Sequence record: MT446402.1
Length of the DNA: 55,824 nt
Reading direction: 5' to 3' (one strand)
Source of the DNA: Escherichia virus TH28
Made by a program: the position numbers and the translations under genes. The notes under the pieces are model-generated. The model searched no databases and had not been told where the DNA came from. It was given only the letters and a program-made list of their open reading frames with translations. Positions 3,692 to 55,824 of the stretch are shown one piece after another (the stretch's first letter is position 1; every line of letters begins with the position of its first letter).

Positions 3692-3700
3692 TGTCTTACC

Positions 3701-8309: not shown

Positions 8310-8487
8310 AATCCACTAATGGCTGAGTTTGCACGGGATTGATGCGAATGATGTTGCCCAAACTAGAATCAGCTTTTAAAATGCGCCGATTTAGCGGCAT
8401 GAATGAATCACAGATAGGACATTGTTGGGTGATAAAATCATCCTCTGCCACTTCGTAATGGCAGTTACTACATTGAATTGTGCGCAT
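8302..8487 (-). CDS. zinc-ribbon protein
   Basis: 61 aa with CxxC ... CxxC (CSNC, CPIC). Confidence 0.4.
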   Translation of the reverse strand: MRTIQCSNCHYEVAEDDFITQQCPICDSFMPLNRRILKADSSLGNIIRINPVQTQPLVDCD

Positions 8488-8541: not shown

Positions 8542-8871
8542 TTAATATTTAATATCGCTCCAATCCATATCTTTAAAGAAATCTTCAAGATACTGCTGGG
8601 TAGAACCAACAACCACCACAATCTTAAATGGCAGTATCAGCGGCTTTACAGCCGACATTAAATCTTCGCGCCCACGCTTGATACGTTCGACGTTCTTGAT
8701 TGTATTTTCACCACGAGGAAGCATGAAAACGATAACATCCGCACCTGTTTCATTGCGCGTTGCAAGTGCACGGGTGAGATAAGTACCACCGCCAGTTGAA
8801 GTGACGGTGGATTTCAAATATGCAAACTTGACTTTGCGATTATTTACAACAACAGGTGAGGACAGTTTCAT
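8542..8871 (-). CDS. hypothetical protein
   Basis: 109-aa ORF on coding strand; no recognisable motif. Confidence 0.4.
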   Translation of the reverse strand: MKLSSPVVVNNRKVKFAYLKSTVTSTGGGTYLTRALATRNETGADVIVFMLPRGENTIKNVERIKRGREDLMSAVKPLILPFKIVVVVGSTQQYLEDFFKDMDWSDIKY

Positions 8872-13222: not shown

Positions 13223-13442
13223 TGTCCAGGTCGGACAGGATAGATTGTGTTACTGCGAAATCTTCCGATTCCTTTAATGCTTTCAGGGCACTTTCGTAGG
13301 TGATATCGCCCTGATAATCACTTCCAAATAATGCCGAGGCGTGCATCTCAATTGCAGACACCGCCAGTTGTGTGGACGGAATATCTCCAGCCGCTTGATG
13401 GAGTTCCATCTGTTGTTTGTCGTACAAGGCTAAAACACGCAT
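13197..13442 (-). CDS. hypothetical protein
   Basis: 81-aa ORF between DNA polymerase and 12323..13222. Confidence 0.35.
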   Translation of the reverse strand: MRVLALYDKQQMELHQAAGDIPSTQLAVSAIEMHASALFGSDYQGDITYESALKALKESEDFAVTQSILSDLDIDSHIIEI

Positions 13443-15376
13443 TAGTGAATCTCCGCGTAGTTATCACCGAACTGCACATCACATGCACAATCACGGTTAA
13501 GTTTAAGTTCTTTGTTGGTACGTTCCATTGCCTCATTAAGCAAGTCCGTCCACAAATCACGGAAACCTTTCTTAACTTGGAGAATCAATTCATCGTGGAA
13601 TTGTCCAGACAGAAGCGGGTCACAGCCCCAACGTTCGTTACAAATTGCAATAATGTTGTTACACCAAATGTCAAACACATATGCACCAGTGCCCTGACAC
13701 AATGTTGAGAAGCGGTCTTTCTCTGTACGCAGCGAATACCAGAATTTGTTTACCGGATTCTGTTGCCACATTTGACCATCAACTGTGATGACTTTAGTGT
13801 TAGCAGCAATCTCTTTGATTGACCAGTTCAAGTCCCAATATGCTTTATGCAGACGTGCAGCCGTTGATTGGTCACAGTCAGCAGAACGGGCAACAGTTGG
13901 AATACCAGCACCATACTGACAAGCATAGTTAGTGGTCTTAAACATTGGACGTTGCTTACATTTCTGTATGCCATCCTTGTGGTCTTGAGATTCTTTCTCA
14001 GTGATGAATCCACCGATTACGCCAATTGCAAGGTGAGCATCGTAGTCCGGTGCCAACTGCTTCTTAACATATTCAGGGTCGTACATCCATTGGAAGTGGT
14101 GCTTACAGCGGTCTTCCAGTGAACACAAGTCAGAGCCTAACTGTTCGTAATCTTCACGCCACGCTTCCAACATTGAACGCAGTTCTTCACCGCCAAATAC
14201 ACGAATAGAAGGGAGGTTAACAAGTTCGCGATGTTTAAGGCGTAAAGTATTGGTAAGGCCACCACATCGCGCAGTAAGGAACCCATCGGAATCGACGTCA
14301 CGAAGGAAGCCATTAACAACAGACAGACGGTGTTTATACACGCCCATCCCAATAAGATGTTGAATACCAGAGTCGGGGTTTCTTTCTGCCAGCTTATGCA
14401 AGCTCGGACAAATTTCGGGATTGCCATCTTCATCCTTGACCGTGATTTGAGGAATCTGGCGAGTCTCGCCTGTCTCTTTGTTACGGTCAAACTTAAATGT
14501 TTCTGGAACCCAGCCAAGGCTGAATAACCAATCTTTGATTTGTACGTGAGAACCAGCGTTAGGTTCTTTGTAACCCTTGAGCACCTTAATGTGCAAGTCT
14601 GGGTCTTTCCAGTCCAAACCGTTTGCATCACAGACGGCTTTCCACTTCATACCAGTTGAGGACAATTGTCCATTCATCTTATGGCATTTGGCAGGACGCG
14701 ACTTTATGACATATTCGGGAACACGAGGCATTGATGCTTCCAACGCATCCGTCTTCTCTTTAATCATTGGTTCAAGTTTGGCCTTAAATGCCAATGCTTT
14801 CTCAATGTTCAGCTTCCAGCGAGTGCGTTGTTGAATAACTTGTTGACGCGCTTTGGTCATAAGGTATTCAATAAAACGCTTAACTTCGCCAGGAGTTTTA
14901 TAAATCTTGAGGAGTTGAATATATTGCTGTTCCCACAGCTTTAGCTGAATCTTACAGTCTTCCATCACACGATGGTTATATTCTTCCTGAGTTTGATTTT
15001 CCCAATCATCAATGACTGGTTTCGGCACACCAAACTCTTCTCCATAACCTTCTAAGCCGTGCTTAACACGACGAGGTTGCAGATACCAACTGATAAACAA
15101 AGTATCAATTAGTGTACATTTTGAAACGTCGTAACCCAAGAACTTTAATGCTTCAAAGTCAAAGGTTGCGCCATTGTGCATAATTAATGTTGGACCTGAG
15201 TCCAGGAATGTTTGAATGGATTTACGGTCGGTCCACTCTGTTACAACTTCTTCACGGGTTTGAACATCAATGTGTCCAATGTTGTGAAGACGTGGGGCAG
15301 CTTGTTTCCTCATCTGCTCCAACAGTCCAGTTGTTTCAATGTCACTGGCATACATTCTTTCCCAAGGATACAACAC
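13442..15376 (-). CDS. DNA polymerase, family A, with 3'-5' exonuclease domain
   Basis: Exo I motif DIETTG at N-terminus; motif B R..K...NY..YG; motif C HDE. Confidence 0.85.
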   Translation of the reverse strand: MLYPWERMYASDIETTGLLEQMRKQAAPRLHNIGHIDVQTREEVVTEWTDRKSIQTFLDSGPTLIMHNGATFDFEALKFLGYDVSKCTLIDTLFISWYLQPRRVKHGLEGYGEEFGVPKPVIDDWENQTQEEYNHRVMEDCKIQLKLWEQQYIQLLKIYKTPGEVKRFIEYLMTKARQQVIQQRTRWKLNIEKALAFKAKLEPMIKEKTDALEASMPRVPEYVIKSRPAKCHKMNGQLSSTGMKWKAVCDANGLDWKDPDLHIKVLKGYKEPNAGSHVQIKDWLFSLGWVPETFKFDRNKETGETRQIPQITVKDEDGNPEICPSLHKLAERNPDSGIQHLIGMGVYKHRLSVVNGFLRDVDSDGFLTARCGGLTNTLRLKHRELVNLPSIRVFGGEELRSMLEAWREDYEQLGSDLCSLEDRCKHHFQWMYDPEYVKKQLAPDYDAHLAIGVIGGFITEKESQDHKDGIQKCKQRPMFKTTNYACQYGAGIPTVARSADCDQSTAARLHKAYWDLNWSIKEIAANTKVITVDGQMWQQNPVNKFWYSLRTEKDRFSTLCQGTGAYVFDIWCNNIIAICNERWGCDPLLSGQFHDELILQVKKGFRDLWTDLLNEAMERTNKELKLNRDCACDVQFGDNYAEIH

Positions 15377-15442: not shown

Positions 15443-17206
15443 TTATTGATGTGGACCGTTCTTCTTAGTAAGTTGAACAATCTCTTTGGTTTCGAACAAG
15501 GAGTCGTCCCAAGAACGTTGAATGATTCGACCAGAGTCTGAGTCATAGTACGTCTTGAAGCCTTCTGTCTTACCACTCTTACGAGCTTTGATAGAACGAA
15601 TGATTGAGCAGTTCGGGTCTACTGCCTGGCTATTACGCTCAAAGCCAAACATGCCATGAGAATATTTAGCAGCAGCACGAGAGCCAGTAAAGTCTGACTT
15701 CTTGATTCGTCCACCATCTTCATGAGGTCGTTGACCTTTTGCCACAGGGTTAAGGTGCGACAAGATATTGACGTGGAACTGGTATTGGTCTGCCAGCTTA
15801 GTAATGTCTGCATACAGCTTGCCTAAGAAGTCGTTCTTCTCTGAGGCAGAAATCCCTTCCGATAAGTAGGTTAAGTTATCAAGAACAAACATATCAATGT
15901 CTGGACCAATCTGACGAAGAATCGTCTTTAACCCATCCCAAGTTTCATAAGGGTCTTCTCCAGCTTGCTTGCGGTCCCAAATCTCCATGTTACGAAGCAT
16001 CTTCGCAGCAGTTTGACGGAACTTCGCTTCATCGTATCGAGGGTCTTCACGAGTAAACGCAGGTTCCCAATACGGCAAGTTGTCATTGAGGCCAGCCATA
16101 CGGCGTAATGTTTCCGCAGGAGTTTCCTCCATGTATGCAGTAAACACTCCCCAATCATGCTGAATAATGTTGTGATGCACAATCTGTCGAGATAGTGTAG
16201 TTTTACCACCACCTTCCGCACCACCGATTGAGATAACTTCGGCACGACGTTGACCAAACATTAAGTCAGTCAGCTTAGGCCAAGGATAGTCCACACCCTG
16301 TTCAACTTCGTCATCAAGTTCTTCCATAAGAAGTTCTTTATTGACAAGAGCTGTAGGCAGAGGACGAGCAGCACGGAATACAACAGCAGATTGAGTAGCT
16401 TTCAATAAGCCACGTTTCAAACAGTCGTTGGCATCATTGGCAGGAAGTGTGGCAATCATTGCACCAGGCAACAAACGACATGCTTCCTTTGCAGCTTTAC
16501 GCCCAGGTTCATCATCATCAAATACGATAACAACCTGTTCCCAACGTTGCTTGATTTCTTCTGCAACTGGTGACAAACATTTGTGTACGGAATCGCTTCC
16601 ATCACTCAAACTAATTACAGCAAAATCCAAATCTTCATATGCACCACCACGGTTCATAGTTTTGAGGATTTGACGCAATGCGATACAGTCTTCTTCACCT
16701 TCTGTGATGAACAGTGTCTTACCGCCAATAGCTTTTGCAGCCATCCAGTTGTATGGGTCGTTGCCTTGAGTATCGCCAACAGACCACATAACTTTCTTGT
16801 TCAGAAGTTTAATCTTCCAGCGAACAAGTTTGCCATTCTTGGTATATCCATGCGCCAAAGCATTTGGAGTCTTACCATCAAACTCTGAATAGAGTAGGCG
16901 AACACCAGCAGCTTTCCAGAACTCCGGTTCAATACTGCGATGGTCTAAATCAAATGGAGGGCACGAGGTTACTTCGTCAATTTCTTCCTGAATTTCTTCT
17001 GGAGTCTTGACTTTAATTTCCGGAATATTCTCCGGATTATTGCCATACGGATTCGGAACAAGAACGCCACATGCAAAGCAGTAACCAGAGAAGTTCTTAT
17101 TACCAGCTTCATCGACATTCAACCAAACCTGTAAAGACTTGCCAGATGTGGATTTACAGTCTGGTACATCGTGCTTAATCTTGGCAACACATTGCTTGAC
17201 GTTCAT
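15443..17206 (-). CDS. primase-helicase (T7 gp4-like)
   Basis: N-terminal Cys zinc-finger region, central TOPRIM-like region, Walker A GGAEGGGKTT. Confidence 0.85.
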   Translation of the reverse strand: MNVKQCVAKIKHDVPDCKSTSGKSLQVWLNVDEAGNKNFSGYCFACGVLVPNPYGNNPENIPEIKVKTPEEIQEEIDEVTSCPPFDLDHRSIEPEFWKAAGVRLLYSEFDGKTPNALAHGYTKNGKLVRWKIKLLNKKVMWSVGDTQGNDPYNWMAAKAIGGKTLFITEGEEDCIALRQILKTMNRGGAYEDLDFAVISLSDGSDSVHKCLSPVAEEIKQRWEQVVIVFDDDEPGRKAAKEACRLLPGAMIATLPANDANDCLKRGLLKATQSAVVFRAARPLPTALVNKELLMEELDDEVEQGVDYPWPKLTDLMFGQRRAEVISIGGAEGGGKTTLSRQIVHHNIIQHDWGVFTAYMEETPAETLRRMAGLNDNLPYWEPAFTREDPRYDEAKFRQTAAKMLRNMEIWDRKQAGEDPYETWDGLKTILRQIGPDIDMFVLDNLTYLSEGISASEKNDFLGKLYADITKLADQYQFHVNILSHLNPVAKGQRPHEDGGRIKKSDFTGSRAAAKYSHGMFGFERNSQAVDPNCSIIRSIKARKSGKTEGFKTYYDSDSGRIIQRSWDDSLFETKEIVQLTKKNGPHQ

Positions 17207-22329: not shown

Positions 22330-22964
22330 AGGAACTCTCCAATTTTCGATTCAGTGTTTGTGACTTCTCTTCTCATCTTTTGGCCCAGGAACAGGCCACA
22401 GGGTAGCGCAGGAAGGCCGAAAATCGGGCCACTGCCTACCGTTTGTGTCAATTCTGGATAACTGCATTGGCGAAGGGTTACTCCCGTTAGGGTGCGATAC
22501 GCTAATCACATGAGTGTCGTCGCCATACGGCTCAGGCGTGTCACAGAGGCTTTGCAACCCTTCCCAATACATTCACCCAAATCCCAGCGTTGGCGTAGCT
22601 GGTGGCTCGGTTTTGTGCGGATTATGCCACTCTAAGCCCTGTTTGTCCGACTTTCTCGGAGCACCAGCGACTTGTGGCACAAACCTATTTTCGAATGACT
22701 AACATAAGCATGAGGCATAACCCTCTAATTATTCAGCCCTAACAGCTTGCTTATTTAGTACCAATTCAACCCAATACATCGACCTATAACAAGTGATTAG
22801 CTTCTGCGAAGAAGTATTCTGGCCCTTTGGCCTATGTTAAAAGATAAGTGTATTTGATGGAAACATTCCATCGAAAATAACTTTGTAGAATGAGTTGAAC
22901 ATTCTCGCACGTTATCGGCCGTAACGGTCTACCGAGTTACAAAGTTATTATCTGATGTTGTTTC

Positions 22965-22981
22965 TTCAATTCCAACTAATG
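22965..22981 (-). promoter_or_regulatory. conserved 17-bp motif copy
   Basis: Plus strand TTCAATTCCAACTAATG; part of a roughly 20-bp direct repeat with 23105-23121. Confidence 0.4.
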
Positions 22982-23050
22982 TTTCAGAATTATTCCAATA
23001 TTCCAAACAAAAAGAATAATAAGAATAAATTAAATAAATGAAGAAAGTGC

Positions 23051-23080
23051 TTGACACCCATTTGGCTATAAGTGTATAAT
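23051..23080 (+). promoter_or_regulatory. consensus sigma70-type promoter on the non-coding strand
   Basis: TTGACA (23051-23056), 18-bp spacer, TATAAT (23075-23080), AT-rich upstream; points rightwards, antisense to 23192-23975. Confidence 0.5.
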
Positions 23081-23104
23081 GCCTTTCTTCCCTAAGAGGT
23101 CAGA

Positions 23105-23121
23105 ATCAAATCCCACTAATG
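23105..23121 (-). promoter_or_regulatory. conserved 17-bp motif copy
   Basis: Plus strand ATCAAATCCCACTAATG, directly downstream of the plus-strand sigma70-like promoter. Confidence 0.4.
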
Positions 23122-23191
23122 TTTCAGACTAAAGCCGAAGGCCAATGCGAGTACAAAACCCGCTTGGCACTTCGAAGAAACCCGCCTGGAA

Positions 23192-23395
23192 CTATAGTGT
23201 TTTCCAGTCTGAATCAAACATTACAGTTGGTCGAGTAAAGATTGTTGAAGAATCGGTGCTCAAGAAGGTATGATTCCCATACCGTTTAACTTCCTGATAA
23301 GCAAATCCCTCAATCCACTCTCCGCTGGTGGCTTTAATCTTCGTTGGCCCCAGAATACGGTAATAAGTATTTCTTGGCTGGTGATGAACAATCAT
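23192..23395 (-). CDS. DUF1653-like small protein (internal start)
   Basis: YYRILG ... YQ ... RPTVMF resembles DUF1653 family pattern by recollection. Confidence 0.35.
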   Translation of the reverse strand: MIVHHQPRNTYYRILGPTKIKATSGEWIEGFAYQEVKRYGNHTFLSTDSSTIFTRPTVMFDSDWKTL

Positions 23396-23408
23396 CTCAG
23401 CTTCGATT

Positions 23409-26576: not shown

Positions 26577-26954
26577 TTAGAATGGAATATCGTCGTCGAA
26601 GTCTTTCGGCTCGTTCGGATTGTAGTTACTGTTCTGCGTCTGTTGCTGAATAGGTGCTTGCTGTTGTGCAGCAGGTTGCTGGCGTTGCTGTTGCTGTTGA
26701 GCAGCAGCTTGAGGTTGAGCTTTGGCTTTAGCTTTCTCTTCACGCTTACGCATCATTTCATCAACTTGTTCTTGGGTCATGATGGTGAGTGCCAGCGAGG
26801 TAAATTCATTACCATTGGCTTGCTTGTTCCAACCAGACACCCAATACCAGATTCCGTCAACGTTAATACGTCCACGAACGTCAGGATGTTTTGGGTCTTT
26901 CTTAAAGCCATTGGAACCGATGATGCCAGTGTTTACGTCTGAATATTGTGCCAT
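26577..26954 (-). CDS. short SSB-like protein with Gln-rich linker and SSB-type C-terminal tail
   Basis: C-terminus KDFDDDIPF matches the enterobacterial SSB tip; Q/A-rich linker; N-terminal region only about 65 aa; 17-bp motif 73 nt upstream. Confidence 0.5.
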   Translation of the reverse strand: MAQYSDVNTGIIGSNGFKKDPKHPDVRGRINVDGIWYWVSGWNKQANGNEFTSLALTIMTQEQVDEMMRKREEKAKAKAQPQAAAQQQQQRQQPAAQQQAPIQQQTQNSNYNPNEPKDFDDDIPF

Positions 26955-27202: not shown

Positions 27203-27490
27203 TCACATCACCTTCGATACAGGAATTGGGTCAATGTTTGATTCAGGTTTATACCAACTAACTTCACCAGAATCTTTCACAAGTTCCCAATTATCGGAGA
27301 ATGTACGATAGAGTAGAACATTGTTATCATCAATAACGACAAAACCCAAAGGAGATTGAATATACGCACCTAATGTACCACTGTTTCGAGGAACTCCGTC
27401 ACCACGACCTGCGACGATTTTGTACTTCTTGCCTTTGGTAAAGCTGGAATTAGTTTCACCAACATATTTAACGATTGAATTCTTGTTCAT
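27203..27490 (-). CDS. small hypothetical protein
   Basis: 95-aa ORF; shares short KxVG/W-rich pattern with neighbours. Confidence 0.4.
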   Translation of the reverse strand: MNKNSIVKYVGETNSSFTKGKKYKIVAGRGDGVPRNSGTLGAYIQSPLGFVVIDDNNVLLYRTFSDNWELVKDSGEVSWYKPESNIDPIPVSKVM

Positions 27491-28298: not shown

Positions 28299-28522
28299 TG
28301 TAATACACCTTGTTCACAAATGTCTGCAAACTCTGCACGATGGTCACGCTGCCATGTCCAGAATGCACCATTCATAGGAACGACAGCACCTTTACGAAAT
28401 GCTGGAGAGAACTCCTCAGCAGATTTGGTAACTTTAAATTCCAAAGGTGAAATAGCTTCACCCTCAATGATTAGGCCAACTGGAACGTAGTCTTTGTTGG
28501 AAGCAACACATTTAAATTTCAT
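28295..28522 (-). CDS. small hypothetical protein, paralogue of 28068..28298
   Basis: Shared pattern VGLIIEGE ... NGAFWTW. Confidence 0.45.
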   Translation of the reverse strand: MKFKCVASNKDYVPVGLIIEGEAISPLEFKVTKSAEEFSPAFRKGAVVPMNGAFWTWQRDHRAEFADICEQGVLQ

Positions 28523-28826
28523 GGTATAAAACTCCTAATTCAGATTCTAATTTAAATTCACGGAAGAAATCCATTGTTACAAATCGGACTTTACCTTCGT
28601 CATCAACTACGTTACAGGAAATGTCGGAGTGGACCATCCTGCCTAGCTTCAAAGCAACTTCTGAAAGATTCGCTTCGCCAGTCCCTGAGATTACACGGTA
28701 GATGCGATATGGTGTAAAGCCGCTTAAAGAGTTATTACGGCTTGGGACAATCATCATGCCTGTTTTAGTAGCCATAATAACTCCAATATTAAAAGTACAT
28801 GAATGCGCCAATAGTAAGTAGCACAA
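28512..28826 (-). CDS. hypothetical protein
   Basis: 104-aa ORF, likely internal start at MATKTG. Confidence 0.35.
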   Translation of the reverse strand: MCYLLLAHSCTFNIGVIMATKTGMMIVPSRNNSLSGFTPYRIYRVISGTGEANLSEVALKLGRMVHSDISCNVVDDEGKVRFVTMDFFREFKLESELGVLYHEI

Positions 28827-29761: not shown

Positions 29762-29980
29762 TTAAACTGAAATTGGCTCTTGAACTAAATCAGAAGCTGA
29801 GATTTCTTTAAACTCTTCTTCTGTAAAAGTTCTCTCATTGTCATTTAATAAAACACCAATGTTAGAATCACCAACGAACACAGCATTTACATTAATGTCA
29901 TCTTCCAAAACCTTTTGCAGATGTTCCCCACCACGCGTGAAGAAGATTGCACCATCTTCCAAATCTTTAAAACGAGTCAT
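29762..29980 (-). CDS. hypothetical protein
   Basis: 72-aa acidic ORF, first gene after the repeat region. Confidence 0.4.
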   Translation of the reverse strand: MTRFKDLEDGAIFFTRGGEHLQKVLEDDINVNAVFVGDSNIGVLLNDNERTFTEEEFKEISASDLVQEPISV

Positions 29981-30270
29981 TTTATTCTCCTAAGTTAAAA
30001 GAAAACTCCCGTCATAACGATTGTGGAGGTCTTGTATTACCTTAATCCACCTTAAAGAATCAGGGAGTTATATAGTATTCCTGTGTGTGCCGCCATCATG
30101 GACTTCCTAGTCTGGTGGGCGCGTTGCAATCCAGCAATAAACCACACGTTTTTCACAGGCTATATATGTGACACACAAAGTGTCTAAAAACTACAATGAT
30201 TAGCTTGGAGACATAATCTCTCTAAAATCTGTCACACAATTTCAGCAGAATTCACAGAGATTTGGTCTTA

Positions 30271-30287
30271 TTCACATACAACTAATG
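30271..30287 (-). promoter_or_regulatory. conserved 17-bp motif copy
   Basis: Plus strand TTCACATACAACTAATG. Confidence 0.4.
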
Positions 30288-30339
30288 ATAAATGAACATG
30301 CTTAATTGCAACTAACTCATCTGCCAAATAGACGAATTT

Positions 30340-31164
30340 TGTCACAATTAAACATGCGTCATTAATTACAGGTTTACTCCCACCTTGAATGTATTTGGCA
30401 CATTAAGATTGGAGCAAGCAGGTACGGAAAACCGACCATGTACAGCATAATAAAACTAATTAAATAAAGGGTTTTATCCCAATATTGTCACAATATTTAC
30501 ATGCGATGATAAAGCCTTCGCTTGGCTGGAAGCCAGTATTCATGCGGGTTGCAAGAATATTGGGTCAATACTGATACAGCTATTACATGTGAAATTGGCA
30601 CAAATACTGTTACAAAATTAACATGCCGGATTGGTAGACAATTGTATCTTCGAGGTGATTAGTCCTCTAACAATTCTGCCACATTCTAACATGCCAATTT
30701 GTAGCAATATTTACATGCCATACTGTGACGCAATTGTCACAATATTTGTTGCTCAAAATCGGGGCGGGCTACGGGATTAGTTTCGCGGCTTTGCTCCGAC
30801 TCTTCTCTTCTTTCGAATTAAGATAGAAAGAAAGAAGCATGTCCAAAAGTTCCAGTCTTGCCAAAGTTATCTCCCGGCTTGTGGGTGGGCCTTTATAATA
30901 GGAGATGGAGCAATATTGTCGCAATTGAACATGCTTTAGTTGAAGAACAGTTTCGAATGATAATCCTACTTCACACATGGTTGCTGGAACTTTGTCTGGC
31001 CAAAGACAGGGAGTTCAATGATTGCCACATCATTACAACGCTGTGTGTTTAGTTGACATGCTGAAATGTTTCTAGAATGATTTCAACATGACATGCGGAA
31101 TACTTCTCCGTATTCTGTTACTTCACATCCAACTAATGTCGAATATTGAAACAATATTACATGC
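30340..31164. repeat. array of at least 8 same-orientation copies of a roughly 20-bp motif (plus strand ATTGTCACAATATTTACATGC)
   Basis: Copies at 30340-30357, 30484-30504, 30608-30626, 30677-30694, 30700-30718, 30733-30752, 30915-30934, 31150-31164 plus partial copies; irregular spacing; immediately downstream of RNAP gene. Confidence 0.7.
31122..31138 (-). promoter_or_regulatory. conserved 17-bp motif copy
   Basis: Plus strand TTCACATCCAACTAATG. Confidence 0.4.
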
Positions 31165-31200
31165 AGCAATATTGCTTGAATATTGGGAATTAAAGGATTT

Positions 31201-31247
31201 AATTAATAAAGAATAAAGAAAGGGCCATCACCTTTCGATGACAGCCC
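31201..31247 (-). terminator. putative intrinsic terminator after RNAP gene
   Basis: Minus-strand hairpin AGGGCTGTCATCGAAAGGTGATGGCCCT followed by U-rich TTCTTTATTCTTTATT; RNAP stop at 31256. Confidence 0.5.
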
Positions 31248-31255
31248 TGTTTCTC

Positions 31256-33370
31256 TTATTGACAGAAGTAGTAAGCGTGTTCGCTCATCAGAAGCTCTTC
31301 GGTTACGATGTTCTCATGATACATCTGAATGCCACCAAGTTGCTTAGACAGATTCTCGAATTGATTGTTGGTTACGAAGATTTCAACATATGCTGCACGA
31401 ATAACTTCCATCATTTTAGGAGCATCAGCTAAGCAGCAACGGAAACAATCATGGATTGAAGTAAAGCCACGAAGACCAGCTTCTTTAGCTTTGACTGCAA
31501 CAGTACGAGCAACCAATGCGTCAATACCTTGAATGTAGTTAACAACGAAGGTACGTTTGAATTCCTCTTTAGTTGGATTGGACTCACGAATGGTCCAAGG
31601 CTTATTCTCCTGAATCTGACCAAAGATGACACGAGTTTGAGAGTCAACACGAATGCTGAATGCATCACAAACATCACGAGATGGGAAGCAAGGTTTCATT
31701 ACAACTTGACCATCAGTGTGCTTATATGTGATGTACTCTTTGTTGAGTTCAACACAACGAGCAAATGCAGCATCAGCAGCTTTCTCGATGAACATGTTAA
31801 TCTTAGCACCCAATGCGTTATGGATTGCTTCAACACAAAGTTCAGCAAATGCTTCGGCTTTCTCCATAGGAATCTGGAGAGCTTCTGTCATGTATGCGGT
31901 GAAATCAGAAGAACCAGTCAATGCAGCTTTACCACCACCATATTGGATAGCCATGTATGGAGTTTTGATAAACTTACGACCAGCTTTCGGATTCAAGAAT
32001 TCATCCATAATTTCAGCGGATGGTTTCATTGAAGAACGGTCAAGCAACTTCAACAGTTCACGAAGAGATAACTGGTATGGGTCAGATGCTTTAGTCTCAG
32101 AATCAACCAGACCTGTAGCACGAGCCATTTCCATGTTACCAGCAATGAATGCCAAGTATTGGGTACCAGAACATTTAGCATCTAAGCCAAAGCCTACACG
32201 AGAATCACACTCACCTGTAGTCTCAAACTTGAACCAATCCAGAGCCAGACGAACATAAGTGAATGGCTTAGAAGGACGCTCACCTTTAGGCATGTTCAGC
32301 ATACGAGCCAAAGAACCAGCAGGATTCTGTGCAACATAAGTTAAACGTTTTGCAGAAGTCCAGTCTCCACCAGCAATATCTTCCAGCTCAAGCATGAACA
32401 TGTTGTATGCCAGAGTTGTTGAGCCATCATCATTAAACTTGCTCACAGTGTTCTCAACATTGTGGGAATACAGGCAACGAGCAAAGTCGGATGATTGTGG
32501 GTTAGGACCAGCACATGCTACATGATACAAACGACCACGGTTATCAGCAAAGTAGTCAGAGAACAGAGTGTCCTGCCCAACCATTGCTACAGCATTGTTC
32601 CAAACATGGAGTTCAGTCTGGATTGCTTCTGGCATCTGTAAGCCACCAAAGGTACGTTGTTCTAACATGGAAGAGATAACCTTAACCATTGTTGCATCAA
32701 CGTGATATTCAGTATCTTGCAGGAATTCGATTGCAGCTTTCAGAGTCTTGGATGGCTTAACTTTGCCACCTTTAACGAAAGGCTTGCGACGAGATTCAGT
32801 TGTTACACGCTCAGTGAATGGAACTGAGGTATCTTTGGTTGTAACCAGCTCAACCCATGCATCAGTCATCTGGAACGATTTGTCCTCGTTCATGGTGATG
32901 AAACCGAAGTGCTTAGCTAAACCAATGAGGTTGATAGCTGGGTCAACATAGTGCATTGCTTTCAGGTCGTTGTTATAACGGTTGGCATCAGCAATAGAAG
33001 CAGAAGCCAGCTCGACCATTGCAATGGCTGGGACAACATCATCACGAGTGAATGACGTCATCATCTTGAAGATTGCAAGAGCAGCAATAGCACAGGTCTG
33101 AGGCTGCATGTAATTCTGTTTCTCTTTGGCACGGTATACCAGAGCCGTGATAGCAGGGACAACGGATTTGATAGTTTGAGTTGAGATAGTTGTCATTTTG
33201 CGAGTCTCCAAGTTAGTTTCGGTTTTAGTTTCGGATTGTGTAGCAGCAGTGATTTCGTCAACCATTTGGTTGCAACGGTCCATCGTATCAAGCACGTCTT
33301 TCCAACCGTGGCCTTCTTCTTTTAAGCGAGCGCCATCAGCAGCCAGTGCGCGATATTCTTCGTTAGTCAT
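31256..33370 (-). CDS. single-subunit DNA-dependent RNA polymerase (T7-like)
   Basis: Motifs DNRGRLY, DAKCSGTQY (motif A), RKFIKTPYMAIQYGGG (motif B), IHDCF (motif C) match T7 RNAP; 704 aa. Confidence 0.85.
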   Translation of the reverse strand: MTNEEYRALAADGARLKEEGHGWKDVLDTMDRCNQMVDEITAATQSETKTETNLETRKMTTISTQTIKSVVPAITALVYRAKEKQNYMQPQTCAIAALAIFKMMTSFTRDDVVPAIAMVELASASIADANRYNNDLKAMHYVDPAINLIGLAKHFGFITMNEDKSFQMTDAWVELVTTKDTSVPFTERVTTESRRKPFVKGGKVKPSKTLKAAIEFLQDTEYHVDATMVKVISSMLEQRTFGGLQMPEAIQTELHVWNNAVAMVGQDTLFSDYFADNRGRLYHVACAGPNPQSSDFARCLYSHNVENTVSKFNDDGSTTLAYNMFMLELEDIAGGDWTSAKRLTYVAQNPAGSLARMLNMPKGERPSKPFTYVRLALDWFKFETTGECDSRVGFGLDAKCSGTQYLAFIAGNMEMARATGLVDSETKASDPYQLSLRELLKLLDRSSMKPSAEIMDEFLNPKAGRKFIKTPYMAIQYGGGKAALTGSSDFTAYMTEALQIPMEKAEAFAELCVEAIHNALGAKINMFIEKAADAAFARCVELNKEYITYKHTDGQVVMKPCFPSRDVCDAFSIRVDSQTRVIFGQIQENKPWTIRESNPTKEEFKRTFVVNYIQGIDALVARTVAVKAKEAGLRGFTSIHDCFRCCLADAPKMMEVIRAAYVEIFVTNNQFENLSKQLGGIQMYHENIVTEELLMSEHAYYFCQ

Positions 33371-33432
33371 GATAAGTCTCCAATTGATTATGATTTAACT
33401 GAAACGGATTAGACTTGCGTAGCCTATTCATA

Positions 33433-33449
33433 ATCACAACCAACTAATG
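33433..33449 (-). promoter_or_regulatory. conserved 17-bp motif copy
   Basis: Plus strand ATCACAACCAACTAATG; 63 nt upstream of RNAP start. Confidence 0.45.
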
Positions 33450-33499
33450 GTAAGGCTAGCTCGTTACAACAGCGTGCTCTGATTGCCTTTGACCTTGAC

Positions 33500-33960
33500 C
33501 CACTACCTAACTTGGTGTTGATTGAAAGCCGATAGGCTATAGGAAAAAGTTGGGGTAGGGACCGTATTTAAGTCCGATAGGACGTTGGGCTTCCCCTCCT
33601 CGGAGATAAAATTTTAAAAATAATAATGACACAACTTCCCCCCCCCCCCGCCACCTCAAAAATAAAATAATATCGCCACAATTCTAGTCTCATTAATATT
33701 GAAACAATTCGAGTCTCATTAATTCCGTAGCAATATTTAAATTAAAAAAAAAAAAATTATATAAAATTTTTATAACATAGTCGGGCTTCTGTTCGAACAA
33801 ATTTCGGCTAGATACAGCTGACCGATTGTGAACGAGTCTATGTCCAGATACAGTTGACCGATCATTTACCATTTGGTTTGAACTTTACGCATTCCTAATA
33901 TTACTTTAAATATTGTAGCAATATTGGGAATAAGTAATATTGAAAACTTACTTATTTTAT
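33500..33960. other. repeat- and homopolymer-rich intergenic region (candidate genome end, origin or packaging region)
   Basis: C12 at 33638-33649, A13 at 33744-33756, direct repeats CAGATACAG(C/T)TGACCGAT at 33811 and 33844, AGTCTCATTAAT at 33687 and 33711, CAATATT-type motifs. Confidence 0.45.
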
Positions 33961-34043
33961 TCTAGCTCAAAGAGAAACGACGCTAACGCATCGAATCTCT
34001 TCTCACATATTAACTGACAAACGTCAGCCTTCACCATACCCAA

Positions 34044-39346: not shown

Positions 39347-40545
39347 TATCGTCTCGCAAGCATAGAGATTTGGTTGGCAGAAAGTCTTGGATATACGGCA
39401 AAGAATCTTAGAGCCATAACAGTCTTATCTGCAAATAAGTTATTATCAATGTAGTCCTTCAAATCAAGTCCGTCAGGGAAGTTGAAGGAATCACCATCAG
39501 CAGTTCGCATGACCACATCGACTTCATCGGTAGTAACCACAACAACCACAGTGGTCGGTATATCCAGAATAGGACCAAAGAATTTCAACCCATTGTCAGA
39601 GATTTTAAATCCACCATACCAAAACTCTGGGTCAATGGTTGTCTCGACAGTCCACAAACCAACAGACTCTGCGTCATTAATATCTTCATGGAAGTTGGCA
39701 CGGAGCATTGGCACAGGAAGTGCAAACTGATTACCATACTTAATGTTGAAGCTGTTGTAGTTTGCTTCTGTGATGATTTCAAAAGCACCCGCAGAGTTGA
39801 TGAACCACGCGTGTCCACCACTGTCCACACCGATTGCAGTAGTTCCGTTGACCAATTCAAATACGCCGGTAGAATCATTTCGATGTGCATATTGTGAAAC
39901 ACCGCTACCAGCATATGCTTCTTCAGTGAAGACTATCGGACCTGTGAAGGTTCCACCAGATGTTGGAAGTGTTCCAAGTTGTTCTGGAGTTACCCTGTGA
40001 ACAGATGCACCAGTTCTGGAGATGTGATACGGGATTGTTGTAACTCGTTCGTCACTGGCAAACCTGTCATACACATAATCTTGAAGGTAGGTTCCATCAA
40101 CAATTGTGTCTACAGTATCCTTGTGCGGGTTCTGTTCTGCCATGTGGGCATTGAACGTGTTCTTGAGATATTGGACCTTTTCACTATACTGAACGAGGTT
40201 AGTCTCAAGAACTTCCTGCCACCCACTTCCAGAGGTTGAAGGATTTATATTCCCAGGAATCTCTTCCCGCTTCTGATAAATCTTACCATCAACTAATGCA
40301 AAAGCACCGAGTGAGTATGTTACAGTGTCGCACCATTGAAGTATGCCACCAAGCAACATCTCTCGAATCTTGACGTCAGTGATTTGAGTTAAGAAGTTCT
40401 GCCATTGTTCAGGAGGCTTTTCAGCTTCCCAACCAACAGTGGCATATCGGTCTGGAATATAGGATGGTGCAGTTGTATCCAAGTCGGGGTCAAGTGCTTC
40501 GCCATCCTGCGCCCAATATTCTGGGTAATTCAAACGATTTGTCAT
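39346..40545 (-). CDS. tail fibre protein
   Basis: 399 aa; follows baseplate genes. Confidence 0.5.
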   Translation of the reverse strand: MTNRLNYPEYWAQDGEALDPDLDTTAPSYIPDRYATVGWEAEKPPEQWQNFLTQITDVKIREMLLGGILQWCDTVTYSLGAFALVDGKIYQKREEIPGNINPSTSGSGWQEVLETNLVQYSEKVQYLKNTFNAHMAEQNPHKDTVDTIVDGTYLQDYVYDRFASDERVTTIPYHISRTGASVHRVTPEQLGTLPTSGGTFTGPIVFTEEAYAGSGVSQYAHRNDSTGVFELVNGTTAIGVDSGGHAWFINSAGAFEIITEANYNSFNIKYGNQFALPVPMLRANFHEDINDAESVGLWTVETTIDPEFWYGGFKISDNGLKFFGPILDIPTTVVVVVTTDEVDVVMRTADGDSFNFPDGLDLKDYIDNNLFADKTVMALRFFAVYPRLSANQISMLARR

Positions 40546-50676: not shown

Positions 50677-52125
50677 TTACTGAATGAAGTTGCCAGAGAT
50701 TACAGCACCCTGGATTGCACCGGAACCGATAGCAATAAAGGAAGTACCTTCCCAAATACGTTCACCCTTCTGCGACTGCAAGAGTTCTAACGGAGTAGAA
50801 ATAACTTTGTAGCCTTCTGGATAGAAGACGCCTTCGTTATCATAGCCAGGGGCAATGAGGCCGTTAGTCTTAGCGAGTTCGAGCGCCAGGGTTACTTGCT
50901 GGTTAACCATTGCTACACCAGTGTCCGTCCAAGGAATCTTGGTAGTGGAGGTGTAGAACAAGTTGAACACGTTCAGTCGAACTTTCTGAGTCAGCCATTC
51001 AACACCTTGTACGGAGTCGAACCATGTGCCGTCAGCCATACGACCGTTGTAGAACATTACGTTGCCAGCAACAGAAATGAATGCGTTACCACCACAAGAA
51101 AGCAGCGCACTTACCTGCCCAGAAGACAGGTCAGCAGTGGCGATACCTGGACCTTTCTTGTATGCCAGAATAAGAACAGAGTTTGCAACGTTAAAGTTAA
51201 CAGTTGATGCACGACCCAGGATAGAAATTTCCGGATATTCATCACCATTCGCAGAAGCATCGTAAACACACAGAGTGTTACGCAGGTTCTGGTTCTTAGC
51301 ACGACGGAAGCTGTTATCAGTGCCGTTGATAAGAATGTTCTTGTCGTTATCACCCCAGCCAAATACTTTGCTGGATGCTTCACACCACTTCGCCACAGAC
51401 ATTTGGTTGTCTACTGGAGAGGTTTTGCCACGATACTGGCGGTCAAGGCCCACATAGAAGAAGTTGAATGGAGCATCTGCAATATTAGACAAGTCGGAAG
51501 AAATGGATAGCTCGTTCTTACCAGCAACAATAACTGCGCTGTCAGAAGATTGCAGTTTCAGTACTTCACCAACTTTACCACCAACGTTGCTGATAGTTGC
51601 GTTGATGCCAGTTGCAGAAGTGGTCAGCTTGAACTTGCCAGCTTCCTGAGTAACAGTTACGCCAGCACCAACAGAAGATAGTGCAGTAGTTACTAGAGTT
51701 GCAACTTCTTCGAAGTCAGCAGCAGCAGAGAAATCAATCGGGTCAGTAACATACTGAACACCGCTAACACTTAACTGCATGGTTGCAGCAGTTTCCAGCT
51801 TAATGGTTGCCAATACAGCAGCAGTTGCAGCAGTAACAGTGGCAGGAGTTGCTGGAGTCAAAGTATCGTACTTGATAGCACCAACCAGGAAAGTCTTCGG
51901 AGTTGGCTTCTGCGAGTACCAAGAGGTAGCAGCTTTAGCAATCTCACCACCAGGGAAGTCTGCGAGAACTTCTTTCAAACTGGTATAGGAACGAACCGGA
52001 TATACATCAACGGTCGGTACAAACTCTTTGCTCATAAAGAGCAATGGCCCAAAACCATCGGTCGCAATGGCGTTCGGGGAGATTGCGATATCAACCTGAA
52101 CTAAATCAGAAATTGGGATTGACAT
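50677..52125 (-). CDS. tail sheath protein
   Basis: 482 aa immediately upstream of tube gene; size and position fit Mu/P2-type sheath. Confidence 0.5.
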   Translation of the reverse strand: MSIPISDLVQVDIAISPNAIATDGFGPLLFMSKEFVPTVDVYPVRSYTSLKEVLADFPGGEIAKAATSWYSQKPTPKTFLVGAIKYDTLTPATPATVTAATAAVLATIKLETAATMQLSVSGVQYVTDPIDFSAAADFEEVATLVTTALSSVGAGVTVTQEAGKFKLTTSATGINATISNVGGKVGEVLKLQSSDSAVIVAGKNELSISSDLSNIADAPFNFFYVGLDRQYRGKTSPVDNQMSVAKWCEASSKVFGWGDNDKNILINGTDNSFRRAKNQNLRNTLCVYDASANGDEYPEISILGRASTVNFNVANSVLILAYKKGPGIATADLSSGQVSALLSCGGNAFISVAGNVMFYNGRMADGTWFDSVQGVEWLTQKVRLNVFNLFYTSTTKIPWTDTGVAMVNQQVTLALELAKTNGLIAPGYDNEGVFYPEGYKVISTPLELLQSQKGERIWEGTSFIAIGSGAIQGAVISGNFIQ

Positions 52126-52127
52126 TA

Positions 52128-52646
52128 TTAAACCTTTTTGGTTGTGATAAGTGTATTACCATCATAGAAGTTGCCACCAACATATGCGCCAGACATGACT
52201 CCGATAGGACTCAAATCTTCACGAATAACATTGAATTGCATTTTAACCGCTTGGCGAACTTCCCAATTGGTTTCCATTTGTATGGTGGCAAGATTTAAAG
52301 GTTCTTTACCAAGAGCAGCAAACTTCTCCTGCTTCAATTTGGCTTGAACATCGGGACGGTAAAACGAATTATCAAACTTGATAAATTCATCACCCTCACG
52401 AGAAAACATTATTGCAAATGTCAGAATACGAACACCACGAGTACGGAATATCTCTTCGCCATTAATGGTTACTATTCTGTTCTCGTCAAAACCTGGGTTG
52501 GTGCTTGATAAACATTTGATTGCAGCATACTCACCATGGGGTCGGGGAGCGTTAATCTGCATGTTGTATGTAAATTGTGGGATGCCCACACATACATCTA
52601 CAATCTCTTTCATGGATTGTAGTTCTTCAAGTCTAATATCCATCAC
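52128..52646 (-). CDS. head-tail joining / tail completion protein (copy B)
   Basis: 172 aa; 2 substitutions relative to 57..575. Confidence 0.45.
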   Translation of the reverse strand: MMDIRLEELQSMKEIVDVCVGIPQFTYNMQINAPRPHGEYAAIKCLSSTNPGFDENRIVTINGEEIFRTRGVRILTFAIMFSREGDEFIKFDNSFYRPDVQAKLKQEKFAALGKEPLNLATIQMETNWEVRQAVKMQFNVIREDLSPIGVMSGAYVGGNFYDGNTLITTKKV

Positions 52647-53059
52647 TTCTCCAGTACGCGAGCGGCAATCACGGAGAAGAACCCAGCATCTTCATAATCG
52701 TTTATTGCTATAACTTTATACTGAATGCCGTAAACAGTGATAATGGATTTCATAGGCATCTTAGTACGACTATGAATCTTCATGAATGCTGGCTGACGTT
52801 CGCCAACATCAGTCGCTTTAAGCTGTTGACCAGCTACACCTGAATCCCTGTCTCCATATGCAATGGGAGTACAGCGGAACTTCTTCGGAGGTGCCCAGGA
52901 ATCTTCCACCCAGTTATTAAGATTGTCGTAATAACCTTCTATATAAACTGCAATGGTGGGTCGGTTTGTGGTTGTGTATCTGTTAAATGCTCGACGTTGA
53001 TTTATCACATCTGCCACCCTGGAGAAATTCGAGGGCCAGCAAAAGCCATACGTCGCCAT
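52643..53059 (-). CDS. head-tail connector region protein (copy B)
   Basis: 138 aa; paralogue of 572..988. Confidence 0.4.
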   Translation of the reverse strand: MATYGFCWPSNFSRVADVINQRRAFNRYTTTNRPTIAVYIEGYYDNLNNWVEDSWAPPKKFRCTPIAYGDRDSGVAGQQLKATDVGERQPAFMKIHSRTKMPMKSIITVYGIQYKVIAINDYEDAGFFSVIAARVLEK

Positions 53060-53394
53060 TGCAAATAACGTTGCCCATAAACGGTAGACATGAGGTCAGC
53101 TTCAACATAGGGAATTGTTGAAATGATTCGGTCGCTAAACTCTACCTGCACATCGTCAACATCTGTACGACTTACAGGTATAGATGGCATAGCAGCATCC
53201 CCAGGCAGTAGGTCGTCAATTGTTGAAGACCAATGCGCAATAAGGGATGCCATTGCTGGGTCATAAAACCCACACCAACGCGATTCGATTGTTCCCATCA
53301 TCAGTTTTGCATCTTCAACTAAGATTTCAAAACGGTCTTGGGTCATGTCAGCCATTGCAGGATAACGTTTAACCAAATCGGTTAGTGTTATCAT
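53005..53394 (-). CDS. head-tail connector region protein (copy B)
   Basis: 129 aa; paralogue of 934..1323. Confidence 0.4.
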   Translation of the reverse strand: MITLTDLVKRYPAMADMTQDRFEILVEDAKLMMGTIESRWCGFYDPAMASLIAHWSSTIDDLLPGDAAMPSIPVSRTDVDDVQVEFSDRIISTIPYVEADLMSTVYGQRYLQWRRMAFAGPRISPGWQM

Positions 53395-53835
53395 TTACGC
53401 CAACTTATCGTAGAGGGCCAGTTTAGCTTCTTCCGGCATATCTTTGATGTTCACGCCGTTAGCAACCAACACTTTATCAATGTCAGGCATACCAACTTTC
53501 ACGCGTTCAACAATAGACAGACTGCCAGCTTTGATAGCTTCTTTGACCAGGTTTACTTTACGAGTTTTACCCGTGGTGTAATATTCCTTAATCACGAGTG
53601 CTTCTTTGCCAGACTTAACGTCAGCACCAATGTTGGAGTCGTCCAGCTTAACTTCTTCTTCACGCATCACTTCAACTTCAGTGACAGAAGAGGTAATTGC
53701 TTTATACACTTCATCATCAATTTCAACAGTTGCACCGCCAGGAATGTGTACAAAATCCAGTACAGGTTTGCCAGATTTATCCTTCTTATAGAAGAAGAAT
53801 TGGAGGTTGCGAGTTTCGTTGTTCTTAAGCTGCAT
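53395..53835 (-). CDS. head-tail connector region protein (copy B)
   Basis: 146 aa; paralogue of 1323..1763. Confidence 0.4.
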   Translation of the reverse strand: MQLKNNETRNLQFFFYKKDKSGKPVLDFVHIPGGATVEIDDEVYKAITSSVTEVEVMREEEVKLDDSNIGADVKSGKEALVIKEYYTTGKTRKVNLVKEAIKAGSLSIVERVKVGMPDIDKVLVANGVNIKDMPEEAKLALYDKLA

Positions 53836-53878
53836 TACATTTCTCTTAAATTAGGCGAGATTTCTCCCGCCATCTGGG

Positions 53879-54886: not shown

Positions 54887-54930
54887 TAAATTTATTCCAT
54901 TAGGCGCAGATTATTCTACGCCAATTAAAC

Positions 54931-55182: not shown

Positions 55183-55223
55183 AGCCGCCGCTACCGCAGT
55201 AACGGTCGGTGCTGGAGGTGGCG

Positions 55224-55697: not shown

Positions 55698-55706
55698 TGT
55701 CTTACC

Positions 55707-55824
55707 TTATAAAGAGTTGAAGCGTTCTAAACGACGTTTGTTAGCTTCTTCGGAAATAGAAACTTTAGGCTTACGAGCTTCTGAATCTTTCTTAGCAGAG
55801 AATTGCATAGATTGGTTCAGTGCA
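55707..55824 (-). CDS. prohead protease / scaffold-like protein, C-terminal fragment cut by window edge (copy B)
   Basis: 55697-55824 is identical to 3691-3818, which covers the 3' end of ORF 3701..4942. Confidence 0.4.
   Translation of the reverse strand, partial: ALNQSMQFSAKKDSEARKPKVSISEEANKRRLERFNSL

Follow-up and report, generated by a model that had tools for sequence, protein, structure and literature searches.

An array of short repeats, all in one orientation, lies in non-coding DNA just downstream of the single-subunit RNA polymerase (RNAP) gene of Escherichia virus TH28 and, by homology, straddles the inner end of a long direct terminal repeat (DTR). The stretch analyzed, here called the window, covers 55,824 nucleotides (nt) of sequence record MT446402.1. 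An earlier note, based on the letters of the sequence, had described the array as iteron-like and proposed a replication origin, a cluster of phage promoters or a set of regulator-binding sites; the decisive context, its position across the repeat end, was absent from that description. We propose tentatively, as a possibility well short of an even chance, that the array is a platform of binding sites for a phage-encoded factor, organizing the inner DTR boundary for end formation and packaging. Sequence comparison places the window in a phiEcoM-GJ1-like myovirus (Chaseviridae, genus Carltongylesvirus): the region is a 100% match to Escherichia virus TH23 and TH33, and about 40 phiEcoM-GJ1-like myoviruses of E. 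coli, Yersinia and Shigella match it at 86-96%.

The repeat array and the inner end of the terminal repeat

All genes of the window are carried on the minus strand, and the array lies within the 1.27 kb of non-coding DNA that separate the RNAP gene from the first early open reading frame (ORF), downstream of the former. Two mechanically called ORFs overlap the array region, 30769-30978 (minus strand) and 30858-31052 (plus strand), both without a Pfam match. On the plus strand the hexamer ACATGC is found 10 times in 30290-31165 (876 bp), compared to 21 times in the whole window. The rate in the rest of the window predicts 0.18 copies in the array (Poisson P~6e-15), and 2000 dinucleotide shuffles of the array region averaged 0.5 copies and never exceeded 4. 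The composite pattern TG-N3-C(A/G)A-N4-5-ACATGC is represented by six copies in the array, all on the plus strand, versus 0.001 in shuffles, and by none elsewhere in the window on either strand. A scan with a position weight matrix (PWM) finds the full motif at 30334, 30480, 30602, 30671, 30694, 30911 and 31141 only. The dense same-orientation repeats reported between the RNAP gene and the first early ORF are thus well supported by the enrichment over shuffles, and the motif search proposed at the time, when run on the genome, its relatives and shuffled sequence, returned a motif that is confined to this locus, enriched, and recurrent in relatives.

The family consensus is (c/g)AATATTGnnnCAATATT, followed by 0 or 1 nt and ACATGC, and its best-kept parts are the right half and ACATGC; read in gene orientation the unit is GCATGT-N4-5-TTGnnnCAA-TATT. 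Seven composite copies carry this consensus, the remaining members being partial: three are ACATGC-only (30296, 31056, 31091), one is an ACATGT variant (30566-30590) and three or four are core-only (30224, 30729, 31017, 30396). The earlier count of at least eight full copies of ATTGTCACAATATTTACATGC does not hold for so degenerate a family, as only one exact copy and one more within three mismatches are present. Some of the partial copies counted then are arms of a hairpin at 31142-31184. The palindromes named there exist, AATATTG-N3-CAATATT forming a 17-bp dyad, although this dyad is not a general property of the units, since just nine of 31 copies across genera have at least four contiguous complementary pairs. 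The extent of 30340-31164 was roughly right, the real span (about 30224-31190) being slightly wider. Distances from one ACATGC to the next (56, 147, 122, 68, 24, 216, 127, 35 and 68 bp) are irregular, as had been noted, and lack helical phasing; the range of 23-235 bp given before is close to the measured 24-216 bp. The GC content across the array is 0.31-0.46, so that the array overall is not notably AT-rich, and two 40-bp stretches have a GC content of 17.5% (30447-30486 and 31176-31215). The units and the intervals between them are as follows, from the early genes towards the RNAP gene.

30224-30301, plus strand: distal edge, with a core-only copy (30224-30241), a promoter-like motif of the type annotated in phage GJ1, read on the minus strand (30271-30290), and an ACATGC-only copy at 30296 (PWM scan, record annotations).
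30334-30357, plus strand: composite copy GAATTTTGTCACAATTAA-ACATGC (PWM 16.5, ACATGC 6/6), with an orthologue in all genera.
30480-30504, plus strand: best copy, consisting of the perfect 17-bp dyad AATATTGTCACAATATT, T and ACATGC; exact match to the 21-mer of the earlier note (PWM 24.1).
30566-30590, plus strand: degenerate copy CAATACTGATACAGCTATT-ACATGT, direct-repeat family D2 of the repeat search.
30602-30626, plus strand: composite copy AAATACTGTTACAAAATT-A-ACATGC (PWM 18.6), with zero substitutions among five close genomes.
30671-30694, plus strand: composite copy CAATTCTGCCACATTCTA-ACATGC (PWM scan), at the end of a block of about 45 bp (30645-30694) that is nearly invariant across genera.
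30694-30718, plus strand: composite copy CCAATTTGTAGCAATATT-T-ACATGC, three mismatches to the 21-mer (PWM 18.8).
30729-30750, plus strand: core-only copy CGCAATTGTCACAATATTTGTT without ACATGC (PWM 13.9), of the units outside the DTR the one nearest to the gap; its TTGTCACAATATTTGTTGCTCAA is kept across genera.
30751-30910, no strand: motif-free, GC-richer gap (GC about 0.46 in the GC profile) to which the DTR ends of relatives map and which would hold the TH28 right end, at about 30792-30802.
30872-30903, no strand: invariant 32-mer TCCCGGCTTGTGGGTGGGCCTTTATAATAGGA, nearly identical in seven genomes that are otherwise about 65-70% identical.
30911-30934, plus strand: composite copy CAATATTGTCGCAATTGA-ACATGC (PWM scan), the first unit inside the DTR.
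31017-31061, plus strand: degenerate core (ATTGCCACATCATTACAACG), then an ACATGC-only copy at 31056 (PWM scan, alignment).
31068-31096, plus strand: ACATGC-only copy, at 31091 (ACATGC count, alignment).
31141-31164, plus strand: composite copy GAATATTGAAACAATATT-ACATGC (PWM 18.3), which also provides a long hairpin with its 5' arm and loop.

The best copy, at 30480, reads ...GTGACAATATTGGGA on the minus (gene) strand, also given as ...GTGACAATATT-GGGA, and its TCCCAATATTGTCACAAT is nearly invariant in seven genomes. It adjoins one of the two AT-rich stretches (30447-30486), which is located 3' of the copy on the gene strand.

The non-coding region aligns with that of phages GJ1, SA91KD, Mangalitsa and 4HA13 of Escherichia, PYps23T of Yersinia, phiA050 of Aeromonas, SNUABM_27, Faunus and Y2 of Erwinia, PM1 of Pectobacterium and Myduc of Proteus. 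Chaseviridae genomes are linear with terminal repeats of about 3 kb (ICTV, PMC12842549). The records of PM1 and Y2 hold both repeat copies, which measure 2665 and 2608 bp, and PhageTerm annotations give DTR lengths of 3120 bp in 4HA13, 3234 bp in Mangalitsa and 3202 bp in Myduc. In all mapped relatives the left end is situated about 200 bp upstream of the RNAP gene, at the conserved TTAAATACGGTCCC. In window coordinates, the right ends fall at 30798 (PM1), 30792 (4HA13) and 30802 (Mangalitsa), all within the motif-free gap. Y2 and Myduc share this layout, bringing to five the relatives with a right end in the central gap of the array, and the Faunus record begins at the window point of the relatives' right end. 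By homology the right end of TH28 would lie near 30800 and its DTR would be about 2.8 kb long, with the RNAP gene as the sole large gene within it. Relative to this end four units are located inside the repeat (30911-31164) and seven or eight just outside it (30224-30750). The corresponding left end is:

33571, no strand: putative DTR left end, ...GGGACCGTATTTAA followed by the cut on the plus strand; the records of Mangalitsa, 4HA13 and PM1 have their first position at this point.

The sequence at the right cut itself is not conserved. The distance from the right end to the first outside unit is 67-102 bp, and among genera the outside units hold their distances from the end to within some 10 bp. 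In bp, these distances are about 84/108/176/298/445/501 for the window, 90/115/182/239/447/503 for PM1, 75/109/177/214/288/442/497 for 4HA13 and 67/103/172/207/232/438/498 for Y2. The fact that unit-to-end distances are kept while the sequence at the cut varies fits a cut that is measured from a recognition complex. On the inner side, the invariant 32-mer lies 73-89 bp from the right end in four relatives with mapped ends and from the inferred end of the window; in Myduc no copy was found. This 32-mer may itself be the signal at which the terminase acts or the end is recognized, or else the -10 element of an early promoter together with a leader. Other observations concern the repeat ends more generally. 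The first bases at the left end (TTAAATACGGTCCCTAC, about 33545-33571) are kept across genera, and an AACTTTT word is found about 20-50 bp inside both repeat ends (window 30845-30856 and about 33545-33571). In Myduc a perfect 218-bp tandem duplication (2767-3202) stops exactly at the PhageTerm-predicted repeat end, and could be either an assembly artefact at the terminus or real.

Each aligned relative has 6-12 ACATGC copies, on one strand throughout, which align as orthologues, and the order and orientation of the copies are kept in six genera. Within a genus, motif and spacer diverge equally (0.053 versus 0.056 substitutions per cell), a test that is uninformative with the whole region conserved; the equal divergence therefore indicates that the whole region is constrained and not the repeats alone. 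Three other blocks are better kept across genera than the repeats: the one of about 45 bp at 30645-30694, the 32-mer at 30872-30903 and GTATTTGGCACA at 30398-30409. The array is not annotated in those records of relatives that were examined, and is not mentioned in the ST32, 4HA13, Mangalitsa and PYps papers or in the ICTV profile. What is new is its unit structure, its extent and its straddling of the repeat end; T7 and T5 already provide examples of repeat arrays next to terminal repeats.

Related units are also found on the other side of the RNAP gene, where the earlier note had seen CAATATT words; CAATATT/AATATTG words are indeed present there, at 33695-33936. Two features lie on that side.

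33668-33742, plus strand: second cluster, of two tandem 26-bp units and a third core, with the polarity of the array (direct-repeat family D10, repeat search).
33908-33931, plus strand: strong dyad AAATATTGTAGCAATATT-GGGAAT (PWM 20.6), inverted partner (I1) of the 30480 copy over 23 nt with 91% complementarity.

The units of the second cluster are situated 40-160 bp outside the left DTR end and read GAGACTC-N4-TTGnnnCAATATTA in gene orientation. They are core-only units without ACATGC. Their 5' word is ACGGCTC in PM1, whereas the phages of E. coli and Aeromonas have GAGACTC, and the cluster is kept in GJ1, SA91KD, phiA050 and PM1. Just outside the left repeat end are also a run of 12 C (33638-33649) and one of about 13 A (about 33744-33756), and homopolymer length varies among relatives.

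A parallel is offered by the Aeromonas phage ZPAH14, the RNAP of which is only about 34% identical and the DTR of which is 3373 bp long. Its DTR end sits within a local array in which GTATGAGAC, a motif present nowhere else in that genome, is repeated about seven times on a single strand, while phiA050, also on Aeromonas, keeps the motif of the E. coli phages. A local polar array at the inner repeat end is therefore a trait of the family, in which the motif goes with the phage lineage and not with the host. A bipartite motif common to the subfamilies (GyATG-N8-yGTnAC) was considered and is not relied on, as just two copies per genome fit it.

A proposed binding platform at the repeat boundary

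In its general form, the proposal of an array of protein-binding sites survives the comparison: the motif is unique to the locus, lineage-specific and polar, with few strong dyads and many weak sites, a pattern read from sequence. The more specific reading, of a platform for the DTR boundary, is preferred because the motif is unique, the mapped ends of relatives are straddled by the array, the distances to the end are kept, related units recur at the left end, and ZPAH14 presents the same arrangement with another motif. The presence of the full motif at one locus in a 52-kb genome meets the need of a packaging or end signal for a single site per genome. We infer that protein binds to the units and that this serves end formation rather than transcription or replication. 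The few strong dyad sites, the many weak polar ones and the invariant ACATGC module would then constitute a cis-acting platform, centred on the inner (right) end of the DTR of about 2.8 kb that bears the RNAP gene, and recognized by a sequence-specific factor encoded by the phage lineage. Within replicating concatemers this platform would flag the boundary of the DTR, allowing the repeat to be duplicated and the right end to be cut at a fixed spacing from the occupied units, either ahead of packaging or in the course of it.

A more specific version, which we regard as improbable, is that a polar nucleoprotein complex on the units governs DTR length, as a ruler or roadblock, by stopping a translocating terminase, the phage polymerase or the replisome. 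The right end would in that case be cut about 70-100 bp from the first unit, with the sequence of the cut site itself free to vary. If true, this would represent a sequence-measured way of defining kilobase-long terminal repeats, and may extend to other phages with long DTRs.

Several observations weigh against the proposed role in end formation. No binder was found, as the early ORFs have no DNA-binding domain recognizable by Pfam or PHROG, and a small terminase subunit was not recognized, the large subunit gene TerL (6264-8309) being preceded by ORFs of 61 and 109 amino acids (aa) of unassigned function, at 8302-8487 and 8542-8871. The array reaches about 500 bp from the end, far beyond the recognition regions of pac and cos sites. 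Furthermore, the termini bear conserved signals of their own, perhaps enough for cutting (the 32-mer at the right end; TTAAATACGGTCCC at the left). The ends of the DTR must fall in the non-coding DNA flanking the RNAP gene, where early regulatory signals would be expected as well, and the co-location could be incidental. Its recurrence across relatives is one ancestral arrangement and not a series of independent events, and in TH28 itself the end is placed by homology. Finally, the published repeat of PYps23T is 2339 bp long (PMC8762354) and has ends that differ from those mapped in the other phages. It is bounded on both sides by a 12-bp direct repeat, TCCAACTAAT(G/A)T, of the GJ1-type motif (window about 31128 and about 33440), and we suspect that these ends are mis-mapped, as an artefact of that short repeat.

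With regard to a possible binder, two of the early ORFs, 28512-28826 and 27203-27490 (both minus strand), encode paralogous small proteins of 104 and 95 aa. These paralogues are the only early ORFs kept in all six genera compared, and are candidates for the array-binding factor.

Were the array to define the end of a repeat of 2.3-3.4 kb, it would provide a testable handle on how long DTRs are measured and duplicated, a question that also concerns T5-, SPO1- and K-like phages, and it would account for the repeat arrays beside the terminal repeat of T7. Chaseviridae are candidate phages for biocontrol and therapy, and in practical terms the array points annotators to the physical genome ends and engineers to non-coding DNA that should be kept.

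Transcription, replication and DNA entry as alternatives

The location of the array and of the second cluster, both directly upstream of the units expressed first (the early genes and the RNAP gene, respectively), would also suit operators, at which a phage-encoded regulator switches the transcription of these units by the host polymerase, through occlusion or a roadblock in the leader. We judge this doubtful. The sigma70 promoter annotated in GJ1 (TTGACG-18-TATTAT) holds a whole unit between its -35 and -10 elements, the core at 30911 gives the TTGCGA of a TTGCGA-18-TATTAT match (30924-30895, minus strand), the only sigma70-like match of the array on the gene strand, and a few perfect dyads among many weak sites are typical of operator sets. 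However, the -35 of the 30924 site is kept neither in PM1 nor in phiA050 according to the alignment, and sigma70-like sites are not enriched (eight, versus 11.6 expected in shuffles). More than 12 sites over 900 bp, in one polarity and each with the invariant asymmetric ACATGC, are in addition unusual for dyad operators, and no helix-turn-helix (HTH) protein was found among the early ORFs. Sigma70 promoters at the units themselves were rejected, as -10-like hexamers at fixed offsets are unconserved and the extended -10 (TGT-nAwwTT) averages about 2.7 of 6 matches. The host-type promoter annotated in GJ1 for the RNAP gene lies outside the DTR, as do other -10-like sites (33572-34043), and a search of 33371-33571 on the gene strand gave no sigma70-like site, so that the RNAP gene copy at the left end may lack a host promoter.

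That the units are a battery of promoters for the phage polymerase, as one of the earlier proposals had it, is improbable. The unit of about 23 bp is laid out like promoters of the T7 class, being AT-rich in the upstream part and again at -4 to -1, with a conserved core in between and an invariant hexamer at what would be +1 to +6, and the dyad core GT(G/C)ACAATATT resembles the SP6 promoter core, GTGACACTATA, a resemblance that provides a lead and not a test. The promoters of Chaseviridae have moreover been stated as not identified (ICTV, PMC12842549). On the other hand, the full motif is confined to 30334-31164, does not precede any middle or late gene, and has no gene-strand copies elsewhere. 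With ACATGC as the start region, transcription would run antisense to every gene, while on the sense side the would-be +1 is a G in only about half of the copies, and many copies are very degenerate. The RNAP is too diverged from that of T7 for its specificity loop to be read, so that the protein offers no guide to promoter specificity either: the T7 specificity loop does not align in a phmmer search against the PDB.

A promoter-like distribution belongs instead to CATTAGTTGGATGTGAAG, a different motif, which the GJ1 record annotates as a putative phage promoter, as does that of SA91KD. Its strand bias is 12:0 genome-wide. Six strong copies (33448, 31137, 30286, 27042, 22980 and 21023, all on the minus strand) are mostly located 80-90 nt upstream of genes, and two of them flank the array. 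The genome scan found none before structural genes, and no equivalent for the late genes. By its distribution this motif is the best candidate for a Chaseviridae phage promoter. The absence of the array motif before other genes, its antisense start-like hexamer and the promoter-like behaviour of CATTAGTTGGATGTGAAG thus disfavour the idea of a promoter cluster. A literature search for Carltongylesvirus transcriptomes gave no phage transcriptome study. ZPAH14 carries a dispersed one-strand motif, GCTCTTCGAGCCAAAAG, with a GGCTC/GAGCC hairpin (2766, 2796, 3503, 4721 and 9186), a possible counterpart of the dispersed CATTAGTTGGATGTGAAG.

A T7-style primary origin, in which transcription by the phage polymerase into an AT-rich stretch primes DNA synthesis and the units help to load a gp4-like primase-helicase or bind an initiator, appears unlikely. 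It would agree with the position of the array, after gene 1 as in T7, and with a T7-like replisome consisting of a family A DNA polymerase (13442-15376), a gp4-like primase/helicase (15443-17206) and a single-stranded DNA-binding protein (SSB, 26577-26954). Putative phage promoters are predicted to flank the array in gene orientation, at 31122-31141 and 30271-30290, the invariant best copy at 30480 is followed on the gene strand by the 40 bp or so at 17.5% GC, and the locus is unique in the genome. At least three same-orientation repeats of about 17-22 bp, a feature of iteron origins, are also present, the array having seven composite and about seven partial copies with ACATGC always on the plus strand. 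The label of an iteron origin nevertheless fails on the two defining features that were tested, regular spacing and an adjacent initiator gene. The spacing is irregular and without helical phasing, and no initiator gene is recognizable: the ten early ORFs downstream are without a Pfam domain of a Rep-type or HTH initiator or of any other kind, remote homology by structure not being explored, and in PHROG nine of them match families of unknown function only, while the tenth (26577-26954) matches the SSB family. No credible DnaA boxes are found, as a direct scan gave two relaxed matches in the array, one of them part of another motif. The analogy with T7 has some support in the position, the replisome and the AT-rich 40 bp; the origin of T7 itself needs no iterons. 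An origin would also leave unexplained the related units at the left end, and the fact that the DTR end falls in the central gap of the array in all relatives.

A further alternative, very improbable in our view, is a stop signal for injection similar to that of T5, whereby DNA entry would pause once the RNAP-bearing repeat has entered, until the polymerase is made. The DTR does carry essentially the RNAP gene alone, followed by a repeat-rich non-coding region, as could be compared with T5. Two-step injection has, however, not been reported for Chaseviridae, the DnaA-box arrangement of T5 is absent from the scan, and with the annotated host-type RNAP promoter outside the DTR the left-end copy may not be expressible alone.

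Candidates of other kinds were also considered for the units. Hairpin promoters of the N4 type, or RNA hairpins in general, were rejected on the nine of 31 copies with at least four contiguous pairs, and T7 primase sites because GTC is not kept among the copies. There are zero Chi sites in the array (direct scan), Rfam gave nothing at E<=1 in the array, and the consensuses of CRP, IHF, Fis, TyrR, ArcA, OmpR, PhoB, matS, parS and DnaA have no in-register match to the motif.

Known systems and neighbouring features

Among known systems, the closest likenesses to a boundary platform are seen in the heptamer arrays that flank the T7 repeat and in the injection-stop region of T5. To our knowledge, no function has been established for the heptamer arrays. 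The T7 sequence, when checked, contains at least 12 same-orientation CCTAAAG-type heptamers at 161-345 and more at about 39610-39720, and an ATCTGTT polymerase pause signal at the end of the 160-bp repeat. In both phages short same-orientation repeats with irregular spacing are located in non-coding DNA adjoining the DTR, and are combined with a single-subunit polymerase and a T7-like replisome; in TH28 the adjoining boundary is placed by homology only. The TH28 unit differs in being 20-24 bp long and bipartite (dyad core plus ACATGC) compared to 7 bp in T7, and its array extends over about 950 bp on both sides of the right boundary of a 2.8-kb repeat that contains the RNAP gene. In T7 itself, maturation and packaging begin once the polymerase has paused at the concatemer junction (PMC3276506).

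The injection stop signal (iss) of T5 is a cis-acting signal, a large untranslated repeat-rich region at the inner part of the long terminal repeat (Davison, bioRxiv 10.1101/866236). Like the TH28 array, it is large, untranslated and conserved in its family, and rich in direct repeats, inverted repeats and palindromes (bioRxiv 10.1101/866236). In contrast, the T5 region is located inside the repeat and is organized on DnaA boxes, whereas the TH28 array straddles the repeat end and is composed of a lineage-specific motif without DnaA boxes.

The R sites of lambda cosB and the pacL/pacR boxes of SPP1 comprise two to four genome-unique sites over 100-200 bp next to the cut. Multiple short candidate sites by a cut site, unique in the genome, are likewise present in TH28, which differs in having more than 12 units, as candidate sites only, over about 950 bp and no recognized small terminase subunit. 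With iteron origins (lambda ori, plasmid oriV) and the primary origin of T7 the array shares same-orientation repeats of about 20 bp that are unique in the genome and, as in T7, follow the polymerase gene; it differs in having no regular spacing, no adjacent initiator gene and, within the array, no clear unwinding element. The p6 protein of phi29 occupies many positions near the termini and serves replication initiation and the control of early promoters. TH28 resembles this in having many putative protein-binding positions near the genome ends, while p6 reads bendability with a 24-bp period and not a motif, and the ends of phi29 are protein-primed with no terminal repeat.

The features that surround the array in the window are the following.

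29762-29980, minus strand: first early ORF, starting at 29980.
31122-31141, minus strand: GJ1-type "putative phage promoter 1" (CGACATTAGTTGGATGTGAA), distinct from the array motif, flanking the array and annotated in SA91KD and GJ1.
31142-31184, minus strand: AU-rich hairpin of 18 bp that directly follows the RNAP terminator; the 31141 copy pairs with an inverted core at 31167-31184, and GCAUG is in the loop (RNAalifold).
31221-31248, minus strand: rho-independent terminator of the RNAP gene (terminator prediction; annotated in SA91KD too).
31256-33370, minus strand: single-subunit RNA polymerase gene, 704 aa (Pfam PF00940, RNA_pol, E=2e-19; T7 motifs A and C align).

The divergence of this polymerase from that of T7 is considerable, phmmer against the PDB aligning just the catalytic motifs A and C with E~0.003. 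For the hairpin, RNAalifold on six genomes gives 18 pairs, three of them with compensatory changes, and the G-U pairs are on the gene strand. This folding pattern is consistent with a function at the RNA level, possibly as an RNase III-type processing site; such a site follows gene 1 in T7.

Additional observations relate to the window as a whole and to neighbouring records. The ends of the window are alike and not identical, 1-2836 being about 90% identical to 52073-54902 and 3214-3818 about 96% identical to 55217-55824. This similarity is not the terminal repeat, which is at about 30.8-33.6 kb, and the window looks like an assembly wrapping past the genome of about 52.07 kb into a second, related variant. 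The interval 22573-23408 (836 bp) has one GJ1-type motif and no gene-strand ORF of at least 45 aa, and relatives have a tRNA somewhere thereabouts. Lastly, the polymerase encoded in record PP952070.1, "Staphylococcus phage Pel53" (host S. hyicus), shares 97% identity with that of the E. coli phages, and the host assignment of this record looks doubtful.

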